Positions 1 through 8,453 of a stretch of 64,000 nucleotides of DNA are shown in pieces. Origin of the DNA: an uncultured Muribaculaceae bacterium (GTDB lineage Bacteria > Pseudomonadota > Alphaproteobacteria > Rs-D84); NCBI GenBank assembly GCA_964371145.1, contig CAYJKO010000002.1:14330-78329 (forward strand), in the 5' to 3' direction. Within the stretch, counting starts at the first letter, position 1. The number at the start of each line of letters is the position of its first letter. The notes under the pieces were generated by a model. That model was not told where the DNA came from and made no database searches. It was given only the letters and a program-made list of their open reading frames with translations. The position numbers and the translations under genes are program-made.

Positions 1-19
1 TATAATAATAGGATTTAAC

Positions 20-316
20 ATGGCATTTAGCAAGCAACAATTACAAAAATTTGCAAATCTTATCAGATTAGATTTGAATGATGAACAATTAGAACAAATG
101 AATCTGGATTCAATCGTTGGATGGTTGGATAAATTACAACAAATTAATACAGATGGAGTTACCCCGATGTTGACACCGGCCGACCACGAATTTCCAACAC
201 GTGAAGACGTTGTAACATCACCAAATATCCGCGAAAATTTATTGAAAAACGCACCAGACACGACCGGTAATGCACGTGGTTATTTCGCGGTCCCAAAAGT
301 AATTGACGAAGAATAA
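20..316 (+). CDS. gatC: Glu-tRNA(Gln)/Asp-tRNA(Asn) amidotransferase subunit C
   Basis: 98-aa ORF with an aggat RBS upstream. It is a small acidic protein sitting directly 5' of gatA, in the conserved gatC-gatA-gatB order. Confidence 0.75.
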   Translation: MAFSKQQLQKFANLIRLDLNDEQLEQMNLDSIVGWLDKLQQINTDGVTPMLTPADHEFPTREDVVTSPNIRENLLKNAPDTTGNARGYFAVPKVIDEE

Positions 317-327
317 GGCAGGATAAA

Positions 328-1794
328 ATGATAAATTTAACAATAACCCAGGCTTTGGAAAAATTGAAATCTGGTGAAATCACAGCTACCGAATTAACAA
401 ATGCGTATTTGGACAGAATAGAAGAATTAAATCCTGAATTAAATTGTTATATCACGGTTACGCGTGAACGCGCATTAAAAGACGCAGCAGAATCAGACGC
501 ACGTTATGCAGCCGGCAATCCACGCCCACTGGACGGGATTCCAATCGGCATGAAAGATTTGTTTGCAACCAATGGTATCCGTACGACGGCGGCATCCCGT
601 ATGTTGGAAAATTTTGTTCCAGAATATGAATCAACAATATCACAAAAATTCATAGACGCGGGCTCTGTATTGTTGGGAAAAACAAATTTGGATGAATTTG
701 CGATGGGAACTTTTTCCAAAACCAGTTTTTTTGGCGCGCCGATAAATCCATATCAAATGGATAAAAAATTAACAGCCGGTGGATCATCCGGTGGCGCAAC
801 GTCCGCGATTGCATCTGGTTTGGCTATGGCGGGAACCGGAACGGATACCGGTGGTTCTATTCGTTTCCCGGCCGCAATTACCGGATTGGTCGGAATGAAA
901 CCAACGTATGGATTGTGTTCCCGATTTGGATGTATTGCGTTTTCATCTTCTTTGGATACACCGGGGCCGATTGCTCGTACGGTTGATGATACTGCCCTGC
1001 TTTTGGCAACTATGGCGGGTTACGATGAAAAAGAATCTACATCTGCAAAATGCGATACGGATTTTTCTAAACCTTTGCAACCTATTTTGGGCGGCAATGA
1101 CAAAATTAAAATCGGTATCGTACGTGAATTTAATGATATAGAGATATCGGATGATATGAAAAAATTATTTGATTTGCGCATTAATCAATTAATCGACATG
1201 GGCGCTGAAATCGTGGACGTTTCTATTCCAAATATTTTGGACGCGTTGGCGGCATATTATATTATCGCCCCGGCCGAGGCATCTTCCAATTTGGCGCGTT
1301 ATGACGGCATGCGTTATGGTTTGCGCGTTGAAGGCGAAAATTTAATCGATACATACAAAAAAACTCGCTCGGCTGGATTTGGATCAGAAGTACAACGCCG
1401 TTTGATGATAGGTACAGCCGTTCTATCTTCTGAAAGTTACGAAGTATATTTTATGAAAGCTGCCCGCGTTCGCCGTTTAATCGCAGACGCATACGCCGCC
1501 GCATTCAAAGAATGTGATTTCATCATTTGTCCGTCTGGGGCTGGCACCGCACAACCTTTGGAAAAAGATTTATCGCCATTGGAATATTACGCATTGGATA
1601 TGTTTACAGTATCTATGAATTTGGCTGGGATCCCTGCGTGCAGCGTTCCGTGCGGATTGGCGACCAATGGATTGCCATTGGGTATGCAAATCGTTGGAAA
1701 TAAATTCGATGATTACCGCGTTATGCAAATGGCAAAACACATAGAAACTTTGGCAGATTTAGATAATCGCCCAACAACAATTATGGGAAAATAA
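328..1794 (+). CDS. gatA: Glu-tRNA(Gln) amidotransferase subunit A (amidase signature family)
   Basis: 488 aa. Carries the amidase-signature Gly/Ser-rich motif (TAGGSSGGATSAIASG) and a catalytic Ser-cisSer-Lys context. Start codon lies 12 nt after the gatC stop. Confidence 0.9.
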   Translation: MINLTITQALEKLKSGEITATELTNAYLDRIEELNPELNCYITVTRERALKDAAESDARYAAGNPRPLDGIPIGMKDLFATNGIRTTAASRMLENFVPEYESTISQKFIDAGSVLLGKTNLDEFAMGTFSKTSFFGAPINPYQMDKKLTAGGSSGGATSAIASGLAMAGTGTDTGGSIRFPAAITGLVGMKPTYGLCSRFGCIAFSSSLDTPGPIARTVDDTALLLATMAGYDEKESTSAKCDTDFSKPLQPILGGNDKIKIGIVREFNDIEISDDMKKLFDLRINQLIDMGAEIVDVSIPNILDALAAYYIIAPAEASSNLARYDGMRYGLRVEGENLIDTYKKTRSAGFGSEVQRRLMIGTAVLSSESYEVYFMKAARVRRLIADAYAAAFKECDFIICPSGAGTAQPLEKDLSPLEYYALDMFTVSMNLAGIPACSVPCGLATNGLPLGMQIVGNKFDDYRVMQMAKHIETLADLDNRPTTIMGK

Positions 1795-1797
1795 TAA

Positions 1798-3066
1798 ATG
1801 TTTGGATTGAAAAAGAAAAAGCCACAGATTACAGAATCCAAGGTGGAAAAAATATTAGAAGAATACATTGACGCAGCGCACAAAGAATTGGATGCGCCGG
1901 CGAACCCTGTATTAAACGAATATTACGAAAAAGATAAATCCAGATTTGGTTTTTGGGGGCTGGATGCCGCCAAATTGGTTAAAACGCCGGAAACTTTGTA
2001 TATTCCGGGCAGTTTTGATGCATATAAATTTACTGCCCTGGGTAATGAATTCAAATTTAAATCAGACGCATATAAAAAATCTATCGAAGAAACTGTATCC
2101 GCCGCAACCAAAATAGTAAACTGGACAAATGATTTAAATTTAAATGAATTATTTTTGAAAAATTCTGTATATTCTGCAAAACATCGTTGGCCATTTACTT
2201 GTAATATTAATTTCGAAGATATAAATACAGACCGCGATAAAATTTTTAAAGTCATAACCCATATGCATAATATCAATTCTGATGCCGCATTGGTAAAAGC
2301 CGGCGCAGGTATGGGATGGGTTGCGCGTAAAAAATTGGATTTAGACCCTCTATTTTATGCTTTTGGGTCAAAATTCTATCAAATCGGAAATAAAAAAACG
2401 GGCGCCACACAAACAATTGAACACAGTGGCAAAGCATTGTTTGAAGAGATTTTAAAAACGACCATAGAACACGATTCTAATTTGGAATTAATAAAATCGT
2501 ATCATATCGGTATGCCGATTACGAAAGAAATTCGTATATTTACAATTGATGGCGCGGTTCAGGCTTTTATACCATATTGGATCGAAGCCGCATTCAAAGG
2601 TCAGTCTGTATACGGCATGAAACCGGGAAAAGATTTCAAAACCGCATTTAAAGAAATAAATACATTTGATAAATCCGATTTGGATTATTTACGTTCCCAA
2701 ACAGAAATTTTGGCTCAATATCCAAAATTCCGTGATTCAAATTGGGCAATTGATTGGGTTACAACTCGTGATGGTGAATGGTATATGACCGATATGCAAA
2801 TTGCCGAATCGTCATACTTGTCTTATAAAGACGCTATTTTCGCAACGAAAGATTCGGAAAAAGAAATTTATAATTTAATGAATAATTGTTTGCAAAAAAT
2901 GAAGGCTCAAAAAGCGGCTATGTCTAAATTGGAACACGTTATGTTTGCAATGATGGGTTGTAAAATGACCATAGCAGGCCAGCTGGAACGTTCTGGATAC
3001 CCAACTCAACGAGAATTGTTGAAAATGGGAAAATTGTTATCAGGGGGGAATCAAAAAACAAAATAA
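1798..3066 (+). CDS. hypothetical protein with ATP-grasp-like C-terminal motifs, inserted between gatA and gatB
   Basis: 422-aa ORF that starts 4 nt after the gatA stop. The C-terminal segment IDWVTTRDGEWYMTDMQIAES resembles the ATP-grasp strand motif (D-f..dG.wy..E.N). Upstream, LVKAGAGMGWV and EIRIFTIDG are consistent with ATP-grasp nucleotide-binding strands. I recognise no housekeeping homolog. Confidence 0.5.
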   Translation: MFGLKKKKPQITESKVEKILEEYIDAAHKELDAPANPVLNEYYEKDKSRFGFWGLDAAKLVKTPETLYIPGSFDAYKFTALGNEFKFKSDAYKKSIEETVSAATKIVNWTNDLNLNELFLKNSVYSAKHRWPFTCNINFEDINTDRDKIFKVITHMHNINSDAALVKAGAGMGWVARKKLDLDPLFYAFGSKFYQIGNKKTGATQTIEHSGKALFEEILKTTIEHDSNLELIKSYHIGMPITKEIRIFTIDGAVQAFIPYWIEAAFKGQSVYGMKPGKDFKTAFKEINTFDKSDLDYLRSQTEILAQYPKFRDSNWAIDWVTTRDGEWYMTDMQIAESSYLSYKDAIFATKDSEKEIYNLMNNCLQKMKAQKAAMSKLEHVMFAMMGCKMTIAGQLERSGYPTQRELLKMGKLLSGGNQKTK

Positions 3067-3084
3067 AAATCCCCATACGGGGAT
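3061..3084 (-). terminator. hairpin (atcccc-atac-ggggat) with A/T run; terminator for the minus-strand tRNA-Phe and plausibly for the plus-strand ORF 1798..3066
   Basis: Perfect 6-bp GC-rich stem at 3069..3084 with a 4-nt loop. On the minus-strand transcript it is followed by tttttatttt. Confidence 0.5.
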
Positions 3085-3090
3085 TGAAAC

Positions 3091-3166
3091 TGGTGGCTAG
3101 GGACGGAATCGAACCGCCGACACAGGGATTTTCAGTCCCTTGCTCTACCAACTGAGCTACCTAGCC
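3091..3166 (-). tRNA. tRNA-Phe (anticodon GAA)
   Basis: Reverse complement gives GGCTAGG-TA-GCTCAGTTGGTAGAGC-A-AGGGA-CTGAAAA-TCCCT-GTGTC-GGCGGTTCGATTCCGTC-CCTAGCC-ACCA. This is 76 nt with a canonical cloverleaf, anticodon loop CTGAAAA (anticodon GAA), a T-loop TTCGATT and an encoded CCA. Confidence 0.9.
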
Positions 3167-3221
3167 GAAACGAAAGTAATAATAAGACAGATTAAATAAA
3201 AAATCAAGGGAAAAAGAAAAA

Positions 3222-4739
3222 ATGTTTACAATAAAAGGAAAAACAGGTGATTGGGAATTGGTAATTGGGTTAGAAACTCATATTGAAATCCTGTCAGAAT
3301 CTAAATTATTCAGCGGCGCAAGCGCGGATTATAACCCAAGCGTATCGCCAAATACCCAAGCTTCTTTCATCGATACCGCAATGCCGGGTATGTTACCTGT
3401 TTTAAATAAATATTGCGTAGAACAAGCAATCAAAATGGGACTGGGATTAAATGCTGAAATTTCCAAAGTCAGCAAATTTGCACGTAAACAATATTTCTAC
3501 CCTGACCTGCCACAAGGTTATCAGATTTCTCAACCCGCAGAAGAACCACCGGTTGTGGGGCGCGGATGGATTGAAATTATGGACGATAACGGCAACCCTA
3601 AAAAGATTAATATCGAACGCGCGCATTTGGAACAAGACGCAGGAAAATTAAAACACGATGCTCATCCGACTAAATCTTTTGCGGATTACAACAGAACGGG
3701 CGTCGCATTATTGGAAATCGTTACGTTTTTAGATATTAAAAATCCTGAAAACAATTCATATATATCATCCCCGATTGAAGCCGAAAATTATCTGCGTGAA
3801 ATTCGCGAAATTGCACGCGCACTGGGCGTATCACACGCGAACATGGAAGAAGGTTCAATGCGCGCGGACGTAAATGTGTCAGTTCGCCGCGCGGGTTCAA
3901 ATGAATTTGGAACCAGAACAGAAACAAAAAATATGGTATCTTTTAAATTTATTAAATCTGCAATTGAATATGAGGCCCGTCGTCAAATCGAAATTATCGA
4001 ATCGGGTGGCACAGTTTCACAGGACACAATGCGATACAATCAATCAACTGGAGAAACATCCGTTATGCGTTCCAAAGAAGACGCGTTAGATTACAGATAT
4101 TTCCCAGATCCGGATTTATTACCTTTAATCATCACGGACGAACAAATTGAAAACGTGCGTAAAAATATGCCTGAATTGCCATCTGCTACACGTAAAAGAT
4201 ATATTGAATCATTCGGATTATCTGAATATGATGCAGCGCGTCTGACAGAATCTGTTGCAATATCCAAATGGTACGAAACGTCTGTCGGCGGCGAAATCCG
4301 CCGTGCAAAACCGATTGCAAACTGGTTGATTTCCGAATTATTTGCACACCCTGAAAACTGGTCTGTGGACAATAAACCCGAACAAACAGAATTCAGAATT
4401 ATAACCCCGTCTGATTTGGCCGAATTGGTTGATATGATATCTGCAAATGATATCAACGGTAAGATGGCAAAAGACATATTTATCAAAATGTTGGATGGTG
4501 AAATTGGAACACCACGCGAAATTGCCGATAAATTTGGTTTAAAACAAATGTCAGATTCCGGCGCGATTGAGGCAGCCGTTGATGATATAATTGCAAACAA
4601 CGCATCCCAAGTAGAACAATATAAATCTGGCAAAGTCGGATTGATGGGATTCTTTGTAGGCCAAGTTATGAAAGCAACAGGTGGCGCGGCCAACCCTGGA
4701 ACGGTTAATGAATTATTAAAGAAAAAATTAGGAGAATAA
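3222..4739 (+). CDS. gatB: Glu-tRNA(Gln) amidotransferase subunit B
   Basis: 505 aa. N-terminal GatB catalytic region (ELVIGLETHIEI..) and C-terminal GatB/YqeY helical domain (..VGLMGFFVGQVMKATGGAANP..). Confidence 0.9.
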   Translation: MFTIKGKTGDWELVIGLETHIEILSESKLFSGASADYNPSVSPNTQASFIDTAMPGMLPVLNKYCVEQAIKMGLGLNAEISKVSKFARKQYFYPDLPQGYQISQPAEEPPVVGRGWIEIMDDNGNPKKINIERAHLEQDAGKLKHDAHPTKSFADYNRTGVALLEIVTFLDIKNPENNSYISSPIEAENYLREIREIARALGVSHANMEEGSMRADVNVSVRRAGSNEFGTRTETKNMVSFKFIKSAIEYEARRQIEIIESGGTVSQDTMRYNQSTGETSVMRSKEDALDYRYFPDPDLLPLIITDEQIENVRKNMPELPSATRKRYIESFGLSEYDAARLTESVAISKWYETSVGGEIRRAKPIANWLISELFAHPENWSVDNKPEQTEFRIITPSDLAELVDMISANDINGKMAKDIFIKMLDGEIGTPREIADKFGLKQMSDSGAIEAAVDDIIANNASQVEQYKSGKVGLMGFFVGQVMKATGGAANPGTVNELLKKKLGE

Positions 4740-4939
4740 AATGGCAAAAACAATCAAAATTATAAAAATGTTGAACTATAATATAATCACAGGTACAACA
4801 TACGGAACTGTTGAAATATCATTGAACGAAACAATTATCCAGAACACCCCAACTGCGCGCGCTTTTGAAATTGCAAAAACAAAATCAAACATTTTGAAAA
4901 AACGTAACAGAACTTTAAACATACGAAATAAATAAAATT

Positions 4940-6244
4940 ATGAAACAATTTTTTATACAAACTTTTGGTTGCCAAATGAACGTGTACGATTCAATTCGTA
5001 TTACGTCTATGTTAATTGACACGGGCTGGGCAAAATGCGACGTGGTCGAAGATGCCGATTTAATCATTTTAAACACCTGCTCTGTTCGCGAAAAAGCAAC
5101 GAACAAGGTTTTTTCCGCATTGGGACGAATTCGTCGTAAAAAAAAGCCTGACGCATTGTTTGGTATTGTCGGATGTGTTGCCCGCGAAGCCGGCGCAGAT
5201 GCTTTCCGACGTATCCCTGAATTGAATTTTGTTCTGGGACCACAAAGTTATCATAAATTGCCAACAATTTTGGAAAATCCAGATTCCAGATTATTAAATA
5301 TCGATCTGGGCGGATTGGAAAAATTTGACGAATTGCCACGGCAAAAAACATCCGACACGGTTGCATTTATTCCAATCCAAGAAGGATGCAATCACGTCTG
5401 TACGTATTGCATTGTGCCGTACACACGCGGGCGTGAATTATCACGACCATTCAATGATGTTATGGCAGATACAATGAATGCGATAAATAATGGCGCTATG
5501 GAAATATATTTTCTGGGTCAAAATGTCAACGGCTATAAATTCACAGATGAAAATGGAAAATTATTTACTTTGGCAGATTTAATAATCGAAACTGCAAAAC
5601 AAGAATCCGTTCATCGCATACGTTTTACGTCCAGTTATCCAACCGAAATGACAGACGAATTAATTGATTTATTCCGTACAGAACCAAAATTGATGCCTCT
5701 TGTTCATCTGCCAATCCAAAGCGGCAGCGCAGATGTTTTAAAAAGAATGAACAGACCATATTCATTAGAATTATATAAAGATATAATTGATAAATTACGT
5801 ATCGCAAATCCAAACATCAAAATTTCATCTGATTTTATAGTTGGTTTCCCCGGTGAAACCGACGCAGATTTTGAACAAACGATGGAAATTGTAAAATACG
5901 TTGGGTATGTAAATTCTTATTCTTTTAAATACAGCCCTCGTCCGCATACGGCAGCGGCATTGATGACAGATCAGATACCTGAAAAAATAAAAGCAGCTCG
6001 TTTGAAAATTTTGGATGATTATTTAAACGTTTTACAACGTGAATTTAATGAATCTTTTATCGACAAAATCATACCTGTTATGTTTGAAAGCATCGACCGT
6101 ACCGGTAATTATTTAATAACCAGAACGCCCCACGGCCAGCAATGCTTGATACCAAAGCCTGATTTCAAATTACCACCCGTTATAAATGTTAAAATAACAT
6201 CTGGGAACAAATCTACTTTACGCGGTGAAATTGTTATCGATTAA
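4940..6244 (+). CDS. miaB: tRNA-i6A37 methylthiotransferase (radical SAM MTTase)
   Basis: 434 aa. N-terminal MTTase domain (FIQTFGCQMN), radical-SAM CxxxCxxC (CTYCIVPYTRG), C-terminal TRAM domain. Confidence 0.85.
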   Translation: MKQFFIQTFGCQMNVYDSIRITSMLIDTGWAKCDVVEDADLIILNTCSVREKATNKVFSALGRIRRKKKPDALFGIVGCVAREAGADAFRRIPELNFVLGPQSYHKLPTILENPDSRLLNIDLGGLEKFDELPRQKTSDTVAFIPIQEGCNHVCTYCIVPYTRGRELSRPFNDVMADTMNAINNGAMEIYFLGQNVNGYKFTDENGKLFTLADLIIETAKQESVHRIRFTSSYPTEMTDELIDLFRTEPKLMPLVHLPIQSGSADVLKRMNRPYSLELYKDIIDKLRIANPNIKISSDFIVGFPGETDADFEQTMEIVKYVGYVNSYSFKYSPRPHTAAALMTDQIPEKIKAARLKILDDYLNVLQREFNESFIDKIIPVMFESIDRTGNYLITRTPHGQQCLIPKPDFKLPPVINVKITSGNKSTLRGEIVID

Positions 6245-7782
6245 AACACAGTGTTCGCACCGAAATTAAACCTGTGACCTATTTTGTTATGCGGCATATA
6301 ATCTGCCGCATACATAAAATTCACACCAAACTTATCCGCAACAGAAAAATAATTATGTTTGACACCAAAAGAATAAATATTATTGGTCTGTAAGATTAAA
6401 AACGATTCGTATTTATTTATCGCGCCACCGTATTGCTTTTCGTATTTTAAATTTATACCTGCCCTTGCATAAACATCTTGCTCATTATTATTTAAAATAC
6501 TATACCGATTAAAACCTGAACCTATAAATGGGTGCAAATCTACATTTCCCGACTTGAAAGAAACGAATCCAAAATCTCCAGACATATAAACAGAATCAGC
6601 CGCCACGTTTAAAATCAAATCACCTGAATTGAATACACCATCTGTTTCATATTTTGCATAATTATAACCGATTACACCATCAAACCAATTCGTATCATGC
6701 TTATAGCCTAAATGTAATGCGCCACCATAAATATCACCAACATAATCATTATATTCATCCGAATTTTTAAAGCTTCCAAAATGTCCCGATAATCCAATGC
6801 TGAAATTTCCGAAATTTAAAAACGATTTTGCGTTTAAAATATTCATATTTATATCATCTGACATTATATAATTTGCGTCCATTTCAAAATCGTCTTTTTC
6901 TTTATAATCTTTAAAACCCAAAACCATATTATTATTAAAAGTTTTCAACGGATTCAATAAATTTAAAGGATTAAACAATACTGATTTTGCCATAATTGAA
7001 TTCATTTCTGTTGTACAACTGGCGTTATCCATCGCATTTATAAAACCGGCATTAACATTTGATGTGCGCATAGAATTCAAAACAGAACCAGTCGTAACAC
7101 CCAAAACCTTTTTATAATCGGTTTCTCTGACGATATTCAAAACCAAATTTCCGTCCTGTACGACAGATTCCGCCGTATACAACGGATTTAAATTTAAAAC
7201 ATTAATATCTATATCCGCGCCAGACAATGAAACATTTTTAACAATAATTCCGTCTTTTTGTTCGTCCATATTTAATGTTAAATTTCCTTCGATAATTATA
7301 TTTTTCAGATCCAAAACAACATCCATAAAAAGACTGGTATCTTTTAATATTAATTTATCTGCATTTGTAACATTACCCATTATTTCAGATGTTTTAATAT
7401 TATTATTTCCCGTGACTTTAACAGAATAATTCAAATCATCATCAACTGAAATGCTTCCCAAAGATTCTTCAGAATCGATTATTTGTATTAAATTCGAATT
7501 TGTGTTGCCTGAAAATACAGACCCTATATTTCCATAATTATAAATATTTAAATCACAACCGTCACAAATATGAAAATCGGCGGACGTTATATTTGCAAAG
7601 TTCTTTATAGTAATAGAATTTTCAGAATATAAACTTTCCGCTGTAACAATTGAATTTTCTGCTATATCAATAGACCTGTCGAAGCCATATGAAACACCAA
7701 CGGCATATATAAAAGCATCTGCCGCATGCGCCAAAGTTGACGAAACAATTCCTATAAAAGCTATTATTAATTTGTTATCCAT
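6241..7782 (-). CDS. outer-membrane beta-barrel / autotransporter-like surface protein
   Basis: 513 aa. Signal peptide (..TLAHAADA), repetitive N/S/G-rich passenger region. C-terminal region has alternating aromatic/hydrophobic residues and ends ..GANTVF (C-terminal Phe), typical of OM beta-barrels. Confidence 0.5.
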   Translation of the reverse strand: MDNKLIIAFIGIVSSTLAHAADAFIYAVGVSYGFDRSIDIAENSIVTAESLYSENSITIKNFANITSADFHICDGCDLNIYNYGNIGSVFSGNTNSNLIQIIDSEESLGSISVDDDLNYSVKVTGNNNIKTSEIMGNVTNADKLILKDTSLFMDVVLDLKNIIIEGNLTLNMDEQKDGIIVKNVSLSGADIDINVLNLNPLYTAESVVQDGNLVLNIVRETDYKKVLGVTTGSVLNSMRTSNVNAGFINAMDNASCTTEMNSIMAKSVLFNPLNLLNPLKTFNNNMVLGFKDYKEKDDFEMDANYIMSDDINMNILNAKSFLNFGNFSIGLSGHFGSFKNSDEYNDYVGDIYGGALHLGYKHDTNWFDGVIGYNYAKYETDGVFNSGDLILNVAADSVYMSGDFGFVSFKSGNVDLHPFIGSGFNRYSILNNNEQDVYARAGINLKYEKQYGGAINKYESFLILQTNNIYSFGVKHNYFSVADKFGVNFMYAADYMPHNKIGHRFNFGANTVF

Positions 7783-7889
7783 AACGGATAAAATTATAAC
7801 TCACAGGATTTTATTCACAAGAAATAATTAATAAAAATTCCCGACATTTTTTGTCGGGAATCAAAAACAATAAAGACTGTTTATAAAAC

Positions 7890-8453
7890 CTACATTTTAC
7901 AAGGTTTAATCATACCCCATGCGGCTTTATATCCGTTATCGCGGGTAAATATGATTTTATTAAATGCGGTATCTTCTAATGTCATATCCTCAATCCATAA
8001 ATCTTTTGATAATACGCCATGACCATCTGACATAACGGTCGGTGTATCTGCATCAATATATTCTATCTTGCAATCTGATTTATTTGCAGTTTTACATTCA
8101 TATTCTGCGAATTGAATTTCATATGGCACACCAACTCTCATATCTTTTACGTGGAATTTAGCCATCACACCATTTTTTTCGTTGTGCATTTTAACTGTTC
8201 CTATTTCAACAGCTTTGCCGTGTCCGTTTTTAGAATATATCACAGCATGGGTACATTTTACGTCTTTCATATCCATATCTTTCATATCATGATGCATCAT
8301 TTTTTTATCATGCATATTTTGTTTTGCGTGCATTTCGTGTTTTTGATGATGTTCTGACGCGTGTTTTTTATCACCATGATGGCAAGCCGCCAAAACAAAC
8401 ATTGAAAATAAAACGGATGCGAACAATCCTGTGCGTTTAAATAAATTTTTCAT
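7890..8453 (-). CDS. secreted His/Met-rich putative metal-binding protein
   Basis: Start chosen at MKNLFKR.. (GGAG RBS 8 nt upstream), giving 187 aa. Signal peptide, then a His/Met/Asp/Lys-rich low-complexity stretch (HHGDKKHASEHHQKHEMHAKQNMHDKKMMHHDMKDMDMKD) and a Cys-containing globular C-terminus. Confidence 0.5.
   Translation of the reverse strand: MKNLFKRTGLFASVLFSMFVLAACHHGDKKHASEHHQKHEMHAKQNMHDKKMMHHDMKDMDMKDVKCTHAVIYSKNGHGKAVEIGTVKMHNEKNGVMAKFHVKDMRVGVPYEIQFAEYECKTANKSDCKIEYIDADTPTVMSDGHGVLSKDLWIEDMTLEDTAFNKIIFTRDNGYKAAWGMIKPCKM

Follow-up and report, generated by a model that had tools for sequence, protein, structure and literature searches.

Why an ATP-grasp gene interrupts the gatCAB operon is the question raised by the window, a 64,000-nucleotide stretch of contig CAYJKO010000002.1. 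Here gatA, for the amidase subunit (positions 328 to 1794, plus strand), is followed by an open reading frame (ORF) encoding 422 amino acids (1798 to 3066, plus strand), then by a tRNA-Phe gene with the anticodon GAA that lies antisense to the operon (3091 to 3166, minus strand), and then by gatB (3222 to 4739, plus strand). The original prediction had described this order from gatC onward, with the ORF directly after gatA, a hairpin beside the minus-strand tRNA-Phe and three peptide motifs in the ORF. Every element was found again at the same coordinates, the motifs (AIDWVTTRDGEWYMTDMQIAES, LVKAGAGMGWV and EIRIFTIDG) are all in the 422-residue product, and the spacer behind gatA measures 3 nt. 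We find that the ORF is a real gene for a long-form protein of the divergent R2K clade of ATP-grasp enzymes. Moreover, we estimate at roughly 70% the probability that it is an accessory gene, captured in a permissive slot between gatA and tRNA-Phe, inherited mostly vertically, repeatedly lost, and conflict related or niche adaptive in function.

The ORF is not a chance reading frame, because it has 27 full-length homologs, 50 invariant alignment columns, a ratio of nonsynonymous to synonymous substitution rates (dN/dS) of 0.12 and a confident structure model. Full-length, intact ORFs were present in all 27 homolog clusters. The dN/dS of 0.12 (dN, 0.16) compares with 0.07 for gatA, 0.06 for gatB and 0.11 for miaB, all of them approximate, since dS is near saturation. 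Between the window and locus L005, the GatA, GatB and MiaB proteins are 82, 86 and 84% identical, versus 45% for the R2K protein, and between L006 and L010 the corresponding values are 91, 92 and 83%, versus 74%. The gene evolves much faster than its neighbors, yet is under purifying selection. Its composition is indistinguishable from that of the rest of the window, as an old and ameliorated gene's would be: GC is 0.355 and GC at third codon positions (GC3) is 0.318 against window means of 0.363 and 0.311, and its codon usage ranks 20 of 48. Its GC is lower than that of gatA and gatB because those two genes are unusually GC rich for this genome. Thus, the comparison of GC3 and codon usage that had been suggested as a sign of insertion turned up nothing foreign.

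What the gene encodes is an ATP-grasp protein, but curated family models place it only below threshold. The window protein scored 13.6 bits against PF18299 (R2K_2; cutoff, 26.2) and did not match PF14243 (R2K_3) in Pfam, and single-sequence and profile searches of PDB sequences, together with NCBIfam, PHROGs and PADLOC, gave no match. Identification therefore needed stepping-stone homologs and fold comparison. By phmmer, the protein matched short proteins of about 270 residues with E values down to 7e-20, and 22 of 30 such short relatives match PF14243 at an E value of 0.001 or less, several of them above the gathering cutoff. An hhalign comparison of the long family with the short proteins gave a probability of 100% and an E value of 3e-50 across the whole catalytic module. 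The module consists of two domains, RAGNYA and protein-kinase/PIPK-like, behind a pre-ATP-grasp domain, which is the arrangement that defines an ATP-grasp protein, and the closest solved structure is an R2K member, Cdc123 (PDB 4zgo). We conclude that the protein has the ATP-grasp fold, belongs to the R2K clade and is not a known amidotransferase subunit. The earlier suggestion of an ATP-grasp protein, possibly of R2K type and unlike any known amidotransferase accessory subunit, is borne out by the stepping-stone homologs, the fold comparison and the invariant clade residues, and the profile and structure searches it had proposed did recover the fold. Because it scores below the Pfam thresholds, we class the protein outside the Pfam models, as a long-form sister subfamily that has diverged from DUF4343.

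The residues that define the ATP-grasp superfamily and its R2K clade have been described (PMC4431377), and we counted invariance at the equivalent positions over 27 long-family sequences. The "two basic residues" signature is K121 and K128 with R130 (2158 to 2187, plus strand); both lysines are invariant (27 of 27) and R130 is present in 25 of 27. K121 lies in ELFLKN (FLKN) at the end of the β-strand spanning residues 117 to 122, with strand numbering taken from the model and the motif. K128 follows seven residues later in a loop with the motif SxKHRW, and its equivalent in the short relatives (K122 of P0031) does not vary either. A second conserved lysine or arginine in the loop just past the strand lysine is a mark of the R2K clade (PMC4431377). 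Also invariant in 27 of 27 are E244-I-R246 (ExR) in the strand spanning 244 to 250 (2527 to 2535, plus strand) and the predicted Mg/ATP ligands D319 and D332-x-Q334 (2752 to 2799, plus strand). D319 lies in the AIDW strand, residues 316 to 322, and answers to the acidic residue that the superfamily has in strand four of the kinase-like domain; D332-M-Q334 lies at the end of the last strand, residues 328 to 335. The latter differs from the ExN motif only conservatively, as DxQ, and the asparagine of ExN is itself sometimes another polar residue (PMC4431377). Alignment A1 shows no GxG-type motif in the loop past K121, and no lysine or arginine between W109 and F119 is invariant in it. Judged by these residues, the enzyme is predicted to be catalytically intact.

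Around the catalytic module, the long form carries three additions. An N-terminal helical extension of variable sequence (residues 1 to 45; 1798 to 1932, plus strand) is absent from the short phage-type relatives. A subfamily-specific insert of about 45 residues (approximately 190 to 237; 2365 to 2508, plus strand), modeled as a β-hairpin and a helix, appears as a gap in the hhalign comparison with them. Finally, a C-terminal four-helix extension (residues approximately 350 to 422; 2845 to 3063, plus strand) with an invariant G400-Y401-P402 is also absent from the short relatives and is possibly a target-recognition module.

The nearest known family is DUF4343/PF14243, which was named R2K.2 by Burroughs, Zhang and Aravind in 2015 (PMC4431377) and whose Pfam model is named R2K_3. 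Both families have the K...K, ExR, D and D-x-polar motifs, a sporadic distribution and an association with phages. The long form differs in its length of 422 to 450 residues, against about 270 for the short form. It also differs in its helical N terminus, its insert and the roughly 70 helical residues, with GYP, at its C terminus, and in being chromosomal, embedded in the gatCAB operon and confined to one uncultured alphaproteobacterial clade. The short relatives are at least partly phage borne: one is on an IMG/VR contig, the closest (P0028) sits among genes for an SbcC-like nuclease, an exonuclease, a single-stranded-DNA-binding protein (SSB) and an HNH protein, and a second contig has HNH, methyltransferase and RNA-ligase genes. 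Distant homologs occur in Clostridium phage Maintenon, Staphylococcus SPbeta-like phages and Fusobacterium phage phiFN37. The window protein itself found no tblastn match in 50,697 phage genomes, and among plasmids its matches were limited to three ATP-grasp genes of Pseudomonas megaplasmids, at 21 to 24% identity.

Two further comparisons set limits on analogy. Cdc123 (R2K.1) is an essential eukaryotic protein that binds eIF2-gamma and regulates the abundance of the eIF2 complex. The window protein is only 14% identical to it, with no match at the sequence level, and belongs to a separate family within the clade; moreover, Cdc123 acts on a translation factor, whereas the window gene shows no sign of such an interaction and is dispensable in close relatives. 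The RimK, LysX and ArgX types of ATP-grasp protein-peptide ligase have a classical flexible-loop motif that the window protein appears to lack, the R2K-type second basic residue being there instead, and the window enzyme has no linked substrate gene.

How closely the gene is tied to the operon was judged from the clade sampled independently of R2K. Sampling went through GatB and yielded three contigs from the list of GatB matches and 48 metagenome loci, 33 of which span the complete gatA-gatB interval. R2K was found in none of the three contigs, in which GatB is 80 to 82% identical and synteny is the same from sufBD to the autotransporter-like gene, and in none of the 33 complete intervals, giving a total of 0 of 36 close relatives. 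R2K is present in just 4 of 185,579 GTDB species representatives. The antisense tRNA-Phe, in contrast, is in 28 of the 33 loci and in every carrier of R2K in the gat slot, and in 24 of those 28 the whole gatA-gatB gap is only 139 to 200 nt. Three other GatB-seeded loci have unrelated ORFs in the gap and no tRNA, and in two outgroups (GatB, 72 to 73% identical) gatA and gatB are contiguous, with a gap of 4 to 7 nt. We conclude from this sampling that the antisense tRNA-Phe is clade wide and older and that R2K is a minority add-on. The synteny comparison that the original prediction had called for thus shows that R2K is not a universally conserved housekeeping gene.

Where R2K is present in the operon, its position is constant. 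Nine distinct genomes (the window, L001, L004, L005, L006, L009, L010, L011 and L067) have the order gatA, R2K, minus-strand tRNA-Phe and gatB, all with a gatA-R2K spacer of 3 to 8 nt. The carriers are spread over a neighbor-joining tree of GatA plus GatB (38 taxa, 100 bootstraps): the window groups with L005 (100%), the carrier L010 is sister to the noncarrier L024 (100%), and L001, L004 and L011 stand apart. Pairwise R2K identities track those of neighboring genes (Spearman, 0.44 to 0.62). A single old gain with repeated later losses is consistent with this pattern. Recombination is probably also involved, as a tract of about 1.7 kb over R2K and the tRNA differs by one substitution between L006 and L009 while the flanks are about 2.5% diverged.

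The L006/L009 comparison is mosaic as a whole, with divergence of about 0.7% over 1900 to 4600, about 2.5 to 3% over gatA and from gatB on, and about 0 over R2K and the tRNA, a sign that homologous recombination is frequent in this species. Transfer specific to R2K had been considered from the near identity and was downgraded, as the divergence is mosaic elsewhere too and such tracts merely can include R2K. Among the carriers, GatA of L011 (4311 to 5873, 520 residues) and of L067 (1245 to 2720) is 54 to 58% identical to that of the window, versus 74 to 82% in other relatives, and GatB of L011 is 76% identical despite the divergent GatA; accelerated evolution or replacement of gatA is suggested in these two. 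The L005/L008 contig, CAYIZJ010000007.1, is titled "uncultured Muribaculaceae bacterium," but its gene content and synteny are alphaproteobacterial, and it is probably a misbinned or mislabeled metagenome-assembled genome.

How the gene came to lie there is bound up with the slot between gatA and the 3' end of the tRNA, which is variable among relatives. In L006, L009 and L067 it contains one or two units, tandem in L009, each made of a hairpin and a degenerate copy of tRNA-Phe positions 35 to 76. These partial copies (L006, approximately 7380 to 7500; L009, approximately 7275 to 7515; L067, approximately 4030 to 4110) lie on the 3' side of the tRNA and start in the anticodon loop. Other partial copies are in L022 (4890 to 5140) and in the spacer of L031, and in L014 (5943 to 5984) the tRNA-Phe is itself truncated, with only the 3' half left. 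Integrases that target tRNA genes usually leave such duplicated tRNA halves behind. The tRNA-Phe is a recurrent integration site in the relatives, and the scars are of the integrase type; they sit on the tRNA side of R2K and not on its gatA side. Hairpins of differing sequence occupy the terminator position among the relatives.

The slot also holds other genes. An ORFan of about 215 to 225 residues (M..K..LGRF..(N/D)..YNILLD...YRWENVLYYY...), with no match in Pfam or PADLOC, follows R2K in L001 (7376 to 8053) and occurs without R2K in L059 (approximately 2230 to 2760). On the gatB side of the tRNA, L029 (4745 to 5991) and L022 (5275 to 5991) have one or two other ORFans (170 and 238 residues) ending 3 nt before gatB; these two loci are the sister lineage of the window and L005, and their ORFans mark another independent colonization of the operon. 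An interrupted gatCAB operon is not unprecedented in Alphaproteobacteria, given that variable genes separate gatA and gatB in Caulobacter, Brevundimonas and Phenylobacterium through independent gain and loss (Open Biol 2014; PMC4221894). The gatA-gatB junction is thus a recurrent site of insertion and loss with the same pattern here, to which this clade adds a conserved antisense tRNA-Phe and, as cargo, an R2K gene tightly abutting gatA. In the noncarrier L016, TAATAAATGGGTATAAAAAAAG after gatA was considered as a relic of the R2K start left by a deletion and was rejected as unproven, as noncarrier spacers are short, variable and mostly hairpins.

Two of the most divergent family members lie away from the gat genes. 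P0024 is a stand-alone gene a few kilobases past miaB, with a near-consensus promoter (TTGACA-16-TATTAT) and its own terminator, adjoining the 3' end of a transfer-messenger RNA (tmRNA) gene, and P0027 follows a gene for an HTH_23 protein and precedes infC. With the short proteins as the root, the tree shows a monophyletic long family (100%), at whose base P0024 and P0027 branch. An ancient mobile origin of the R2K gene is plausible, because partial tRNA copies occur in the slot and the basal members lie beside tmRNA or after an HTH gene.

How the enzyme might work can be outlined from its relatives. We propose that a long-form offshoot of DUF4343/PF14243, whose members of about 270 residues occur in phage modules for DNA and RNA metabolism, entered the slot between gatA and the already present antisense tRNA-Phe in an uncultured alphaproteobacterial clade. 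Afterward, it would have been inherited mostly vertically, with some recombination within species and repeated loss. The gene would be transcribed from the gat promoter and its translation coupled to gatA across the 3-nt spacer, and the transcript would probably run on across the antisense tRNA into gatB. By analogy with the superfamily, K121/K128, E244/R246, D319 and D332/Q334 would hold Mg-ATP, a substrate carboxylate would be converted to an acyl-phosphate, and attack by an amine would yield an amide bond. For R2K proteins, the predicted activity is addition of amino acids or peptides to proteins during conflicts, those between phage and host among them (PMC4431377), and the product here would most likely be a protein to which an amino acid or peptide had been added, with the N-terminal, insert and C-terminal modules serving target recognition. 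Sporadic retention, rapid divergence and phage relatives together argue for a conflict-related or niche-adaptive role and not for housekeeping in Gln/Asn-tRNA synthesis. PADLOC-DB v2 gave no defense-model match for the window protein, the short relatives or the colocated ORFans.

Several points weigh against this account of an accessory conflict or niche gene. The literature that we searched reports no biochemical activity for any bacterial or phage R2K protein, and for Cdc123, the only studied member of the clade, we found no ligation product reported, so that the word "ligase" is itself inferred. The window protein is below the Pfam threshold and has no PADLOC or PHROG match, and the conflict or defense component draws on distribution and rate only. 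The clade of gat-slot members has 26% bootstrap, which backs a single capture into the slot weakly. Co-transcription and translational coupling with gatA are likewise inferred. Moreover, in 9 of 11 distinct contexts the gene abuts gatA by 3 to 8 nt, a closeness that a functional tie to the operon would likewise account for, and the zero count and the carriers come from different collections, which bounds the carrier frequency only loosely.

A functional tie would make the protein a dedicated partner of GatCAB or of aminoacyl-tRNA, either an ATP-dependent assembly or modification factor of heterotrimeric GatCAB, in the manner of Cdc123, or an ATP-grasp enzyme acting on a GatCAB subunit or on the carboxylate of Glu- or Asp-tRNA. 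In the latter variant, the activated side-chain carboxylate of Glu-tRNA(Gln) or Asp-tRNA(Asn) would be joined to an amine other than ammonia. The reactions of ATP-grasp enzymes and GatB both go via acyl-phosphates. Cdc123, the closest solved structure, acts on a heterotrimeric translation factor, and nine distinct genomes keep the position between gatA and gatB, with its 3- to 8-nt spacer, although protein identity is only about 40%. Common descent, however, explains the positional conservation, and the gene is missing from 36 of 36 relatives chosen through GatB, whose GatCAB is about 80% identical and whose synteny is the same. Moreover, sister genomes differ in its presence, unrelated ORFans occupy the same slot, and the two basal family members are not beside gat genes. 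We found no paper in the searched literature tying gatCAB to an ATP-grasp gene. The partner in Glu/Gln-tRNA metabolism that had been offered as an alternative is therefore not supported, and we consider it improbable. A ligase for small molecules or peptides (dipeptide, metabolite or cell-wall type, like Ddl, DcsG or the L-amino-acid ligases) in place of a protein-modifying enzyme is doubtful but deserves more weight. No biosynthetic, transporter or precursor genes are linked to it in the operon, proteins are the predicted targets of the R2K clade (PMC4431377), and the extra helical modules would seem to resemble those that recognize macromolecules.

The original prediction had proposed a tRNA-targeted insertion carrying the enzyme, and the corresponding possibility is that an integrase-borne element recently struck tRNA-Phe and brought the ATP-grasp gene into the operon. 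The 3' end of the tRNA does face the R2K ORF, partial copies of positions 35 to 76 occur in L006, L009, L067, L022 and L031 beside the truncated tRNA of L014, and the L066 gene adjoins the 3' end of tmRNA, another classic integrase target. In these respects the locus resembles islands targeted to tRNA and tmRNA genes. It differs from them in that we found no integrase among the window ORFs at 1 to 8000, no second copy of either half of tRNA-Phe in the 64 kb and no flanking direct repeats, and the composition is fully host-like. Moreover, the scars lie on the side from R2K to the tRNA and are not the boundaries of R2K, so they mark other events, and carriers diverged to 40% share the position, so any insertion was ancient. 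A recent island is thus very unlikely, because the tRNA is older, the composition is ameliorated, att repeats are lacking and the gene abuts gatA by 3 to 8 nt in all carriers. What stands of that proposal is the variable cargo slot with integrase-type scars in the relatives; what falls is a recent insertion. Least credible of all is a passenger in decay, a remnant without activity or function that an essential operon holds in place. Frequent loss, fast divergence and the lack of a family at curated thresholds would be expected of one, but the ORFs are full length with invariant catalytic residues in all 27 clusters, dN/dS is similar to that of miaB, and the fold is confident.

If a link to GatCAB or aminoacyl-tRNA were nonetheless true, the protein would be an optional bacterial counterpart of Cdc123 on eIF2 and the first of the bacterial R2K proteins for which a target is identified. 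On the accessory-gene reading, the locus does not overturn current understanding. What is new is the long-form variant of R2K/DUF4343, and what was already known is the interruption of gatA-gatB by variable genes in Alphaproteobacteria. The R2K clade includes the essential eukaryotic Cdc123, while the searched literature gives no substrate for its bacterial and phage members. The long form is a tractable entry point to what bacterial R2K enzymes modify: the subfamily is monophyletic, its active site is apparently intact, it has putative modules for recognition and a confident structure model, and syntenic genomes with and without it occur naturally. Moreover, an essential translation operon can serve as a "porous" expression platform, for gatCAB is here split by a conserved antisense tRNA and repeatedly colonized by ORFans specific to particular lineages. 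In this, the clade goes beyond what was seen in Caulobacter, and one may ask how gatB comes to be expressed when a tRNA gene stands head on in its path.

How gatB may be expressed is constrained by the features on either side. At the upstream junction, the gatA stop codon TAA (1792 to 1794) is followed by a second TAA (1795 to 1797) and the R2K ATG at 1798 (junction, 1792 to 1800, plus strand; context, ...GGGAAAATAATAAATG...), so that it reads GGGAAAATAA-TAA-ATG. The final codons of gatA, ATG GGA AAA TAA, supply a GGGA element resembling a Shine-Dalgarno sequence 9 nt 5' of the R2K ATG, and the GatA C terminus MG[KE]* is kept in all loci. The TAA-TAA-ATG geometry would fit translational coupling of R2K to gatA. 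Downstream, the 7-bp hairpin of the intrinsic tRNA-Phe terminator (3068 to 3085, minus strand) has a T run on the minus strand only, and the tRNA itself was called by ARAGORN and scored 73 bits with the Rfam tRNA model. A promoter-like site, TTGATT-17-TATTAT (3179 to 3207, minus strand), would serve the tRNA. A scan of 1300 to 4100 found no plus-strand promoter-like site. Because the T run is on the minus strand only and no such site precedes gatB, a plus-strand transcript would run into gatB. The -35-like hexamer of the tRNA overlaps the ribosome-binding region of gatB on the opposite strand, and the spacer of about 52 nt from the tRNA to gatB, ATAATAAGATA...AAGCAAGGAAAAA, is highly conserved across the clade. 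Thus, gatB may be transcribed head on across an active tRNA gene, and its mRNA would contain a full antisense tRNA-Phe. In L041 (331 to 606), the minus strand upstream of gatB carries a cluster of tRNA-Pro(TGG), tRNA-Arg(ACG) and tRNA-Phe(GAA), so the wedge can become a small array.

The remaining genes of the locus include gatC (20 to 316, plus strand), whose homologs in relatives match PF02686 (GatC), as those of gatA match PF01425 (Amidase) and those of gatB match PF02934 and PF02637. In relatives, one to four paralogous ORFs of 130 to 165 residues lie between gatC and gatA and end in a cysteine motif, C..L..GKC.D.F....G..L.P..Y..QK (L004, 2784 to 4493; L006, 3444 to 3920; L010, 3517 to 4410; also L015, L016, L024, L025 and others; 19 matches). 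They have no Pfam match and are missing from the window locus, L005 and L011, with none anywhere in the 64 kb. Between gatB and miaB (a MiaB-like radical-SAM gene, 4940 to 6244), a 64-residue ORF (4741 to 4935, plus strand; MAKTIKIIKMLNYNIITGTTYGTVEISLNE..., with a basic tail) represents an unannotated conserved family of miniproteins with an N-terminal ITGxxYG motif, without a match in Pfam or PADLOC. It occupies the same position in 34 loci, R2K carriers and noncarriers alike. Both the cysteine-motif ORFs and this miniprotein were considered as substrates or partners of R2K and rejected, as both occur in carriers and noncarriers and the window has no cysteine-motif ORF. Finally, a 513-residue ORF convergent with miaB (6241 to 7782, minus strand; low GC, 0.31) keeps its place in all relatives. 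The copies in the window and L066 have no Pfam match, the homolog in L016 matches PF03797 (Autotransporter), and the product is probably a fast-evolving surface protein.

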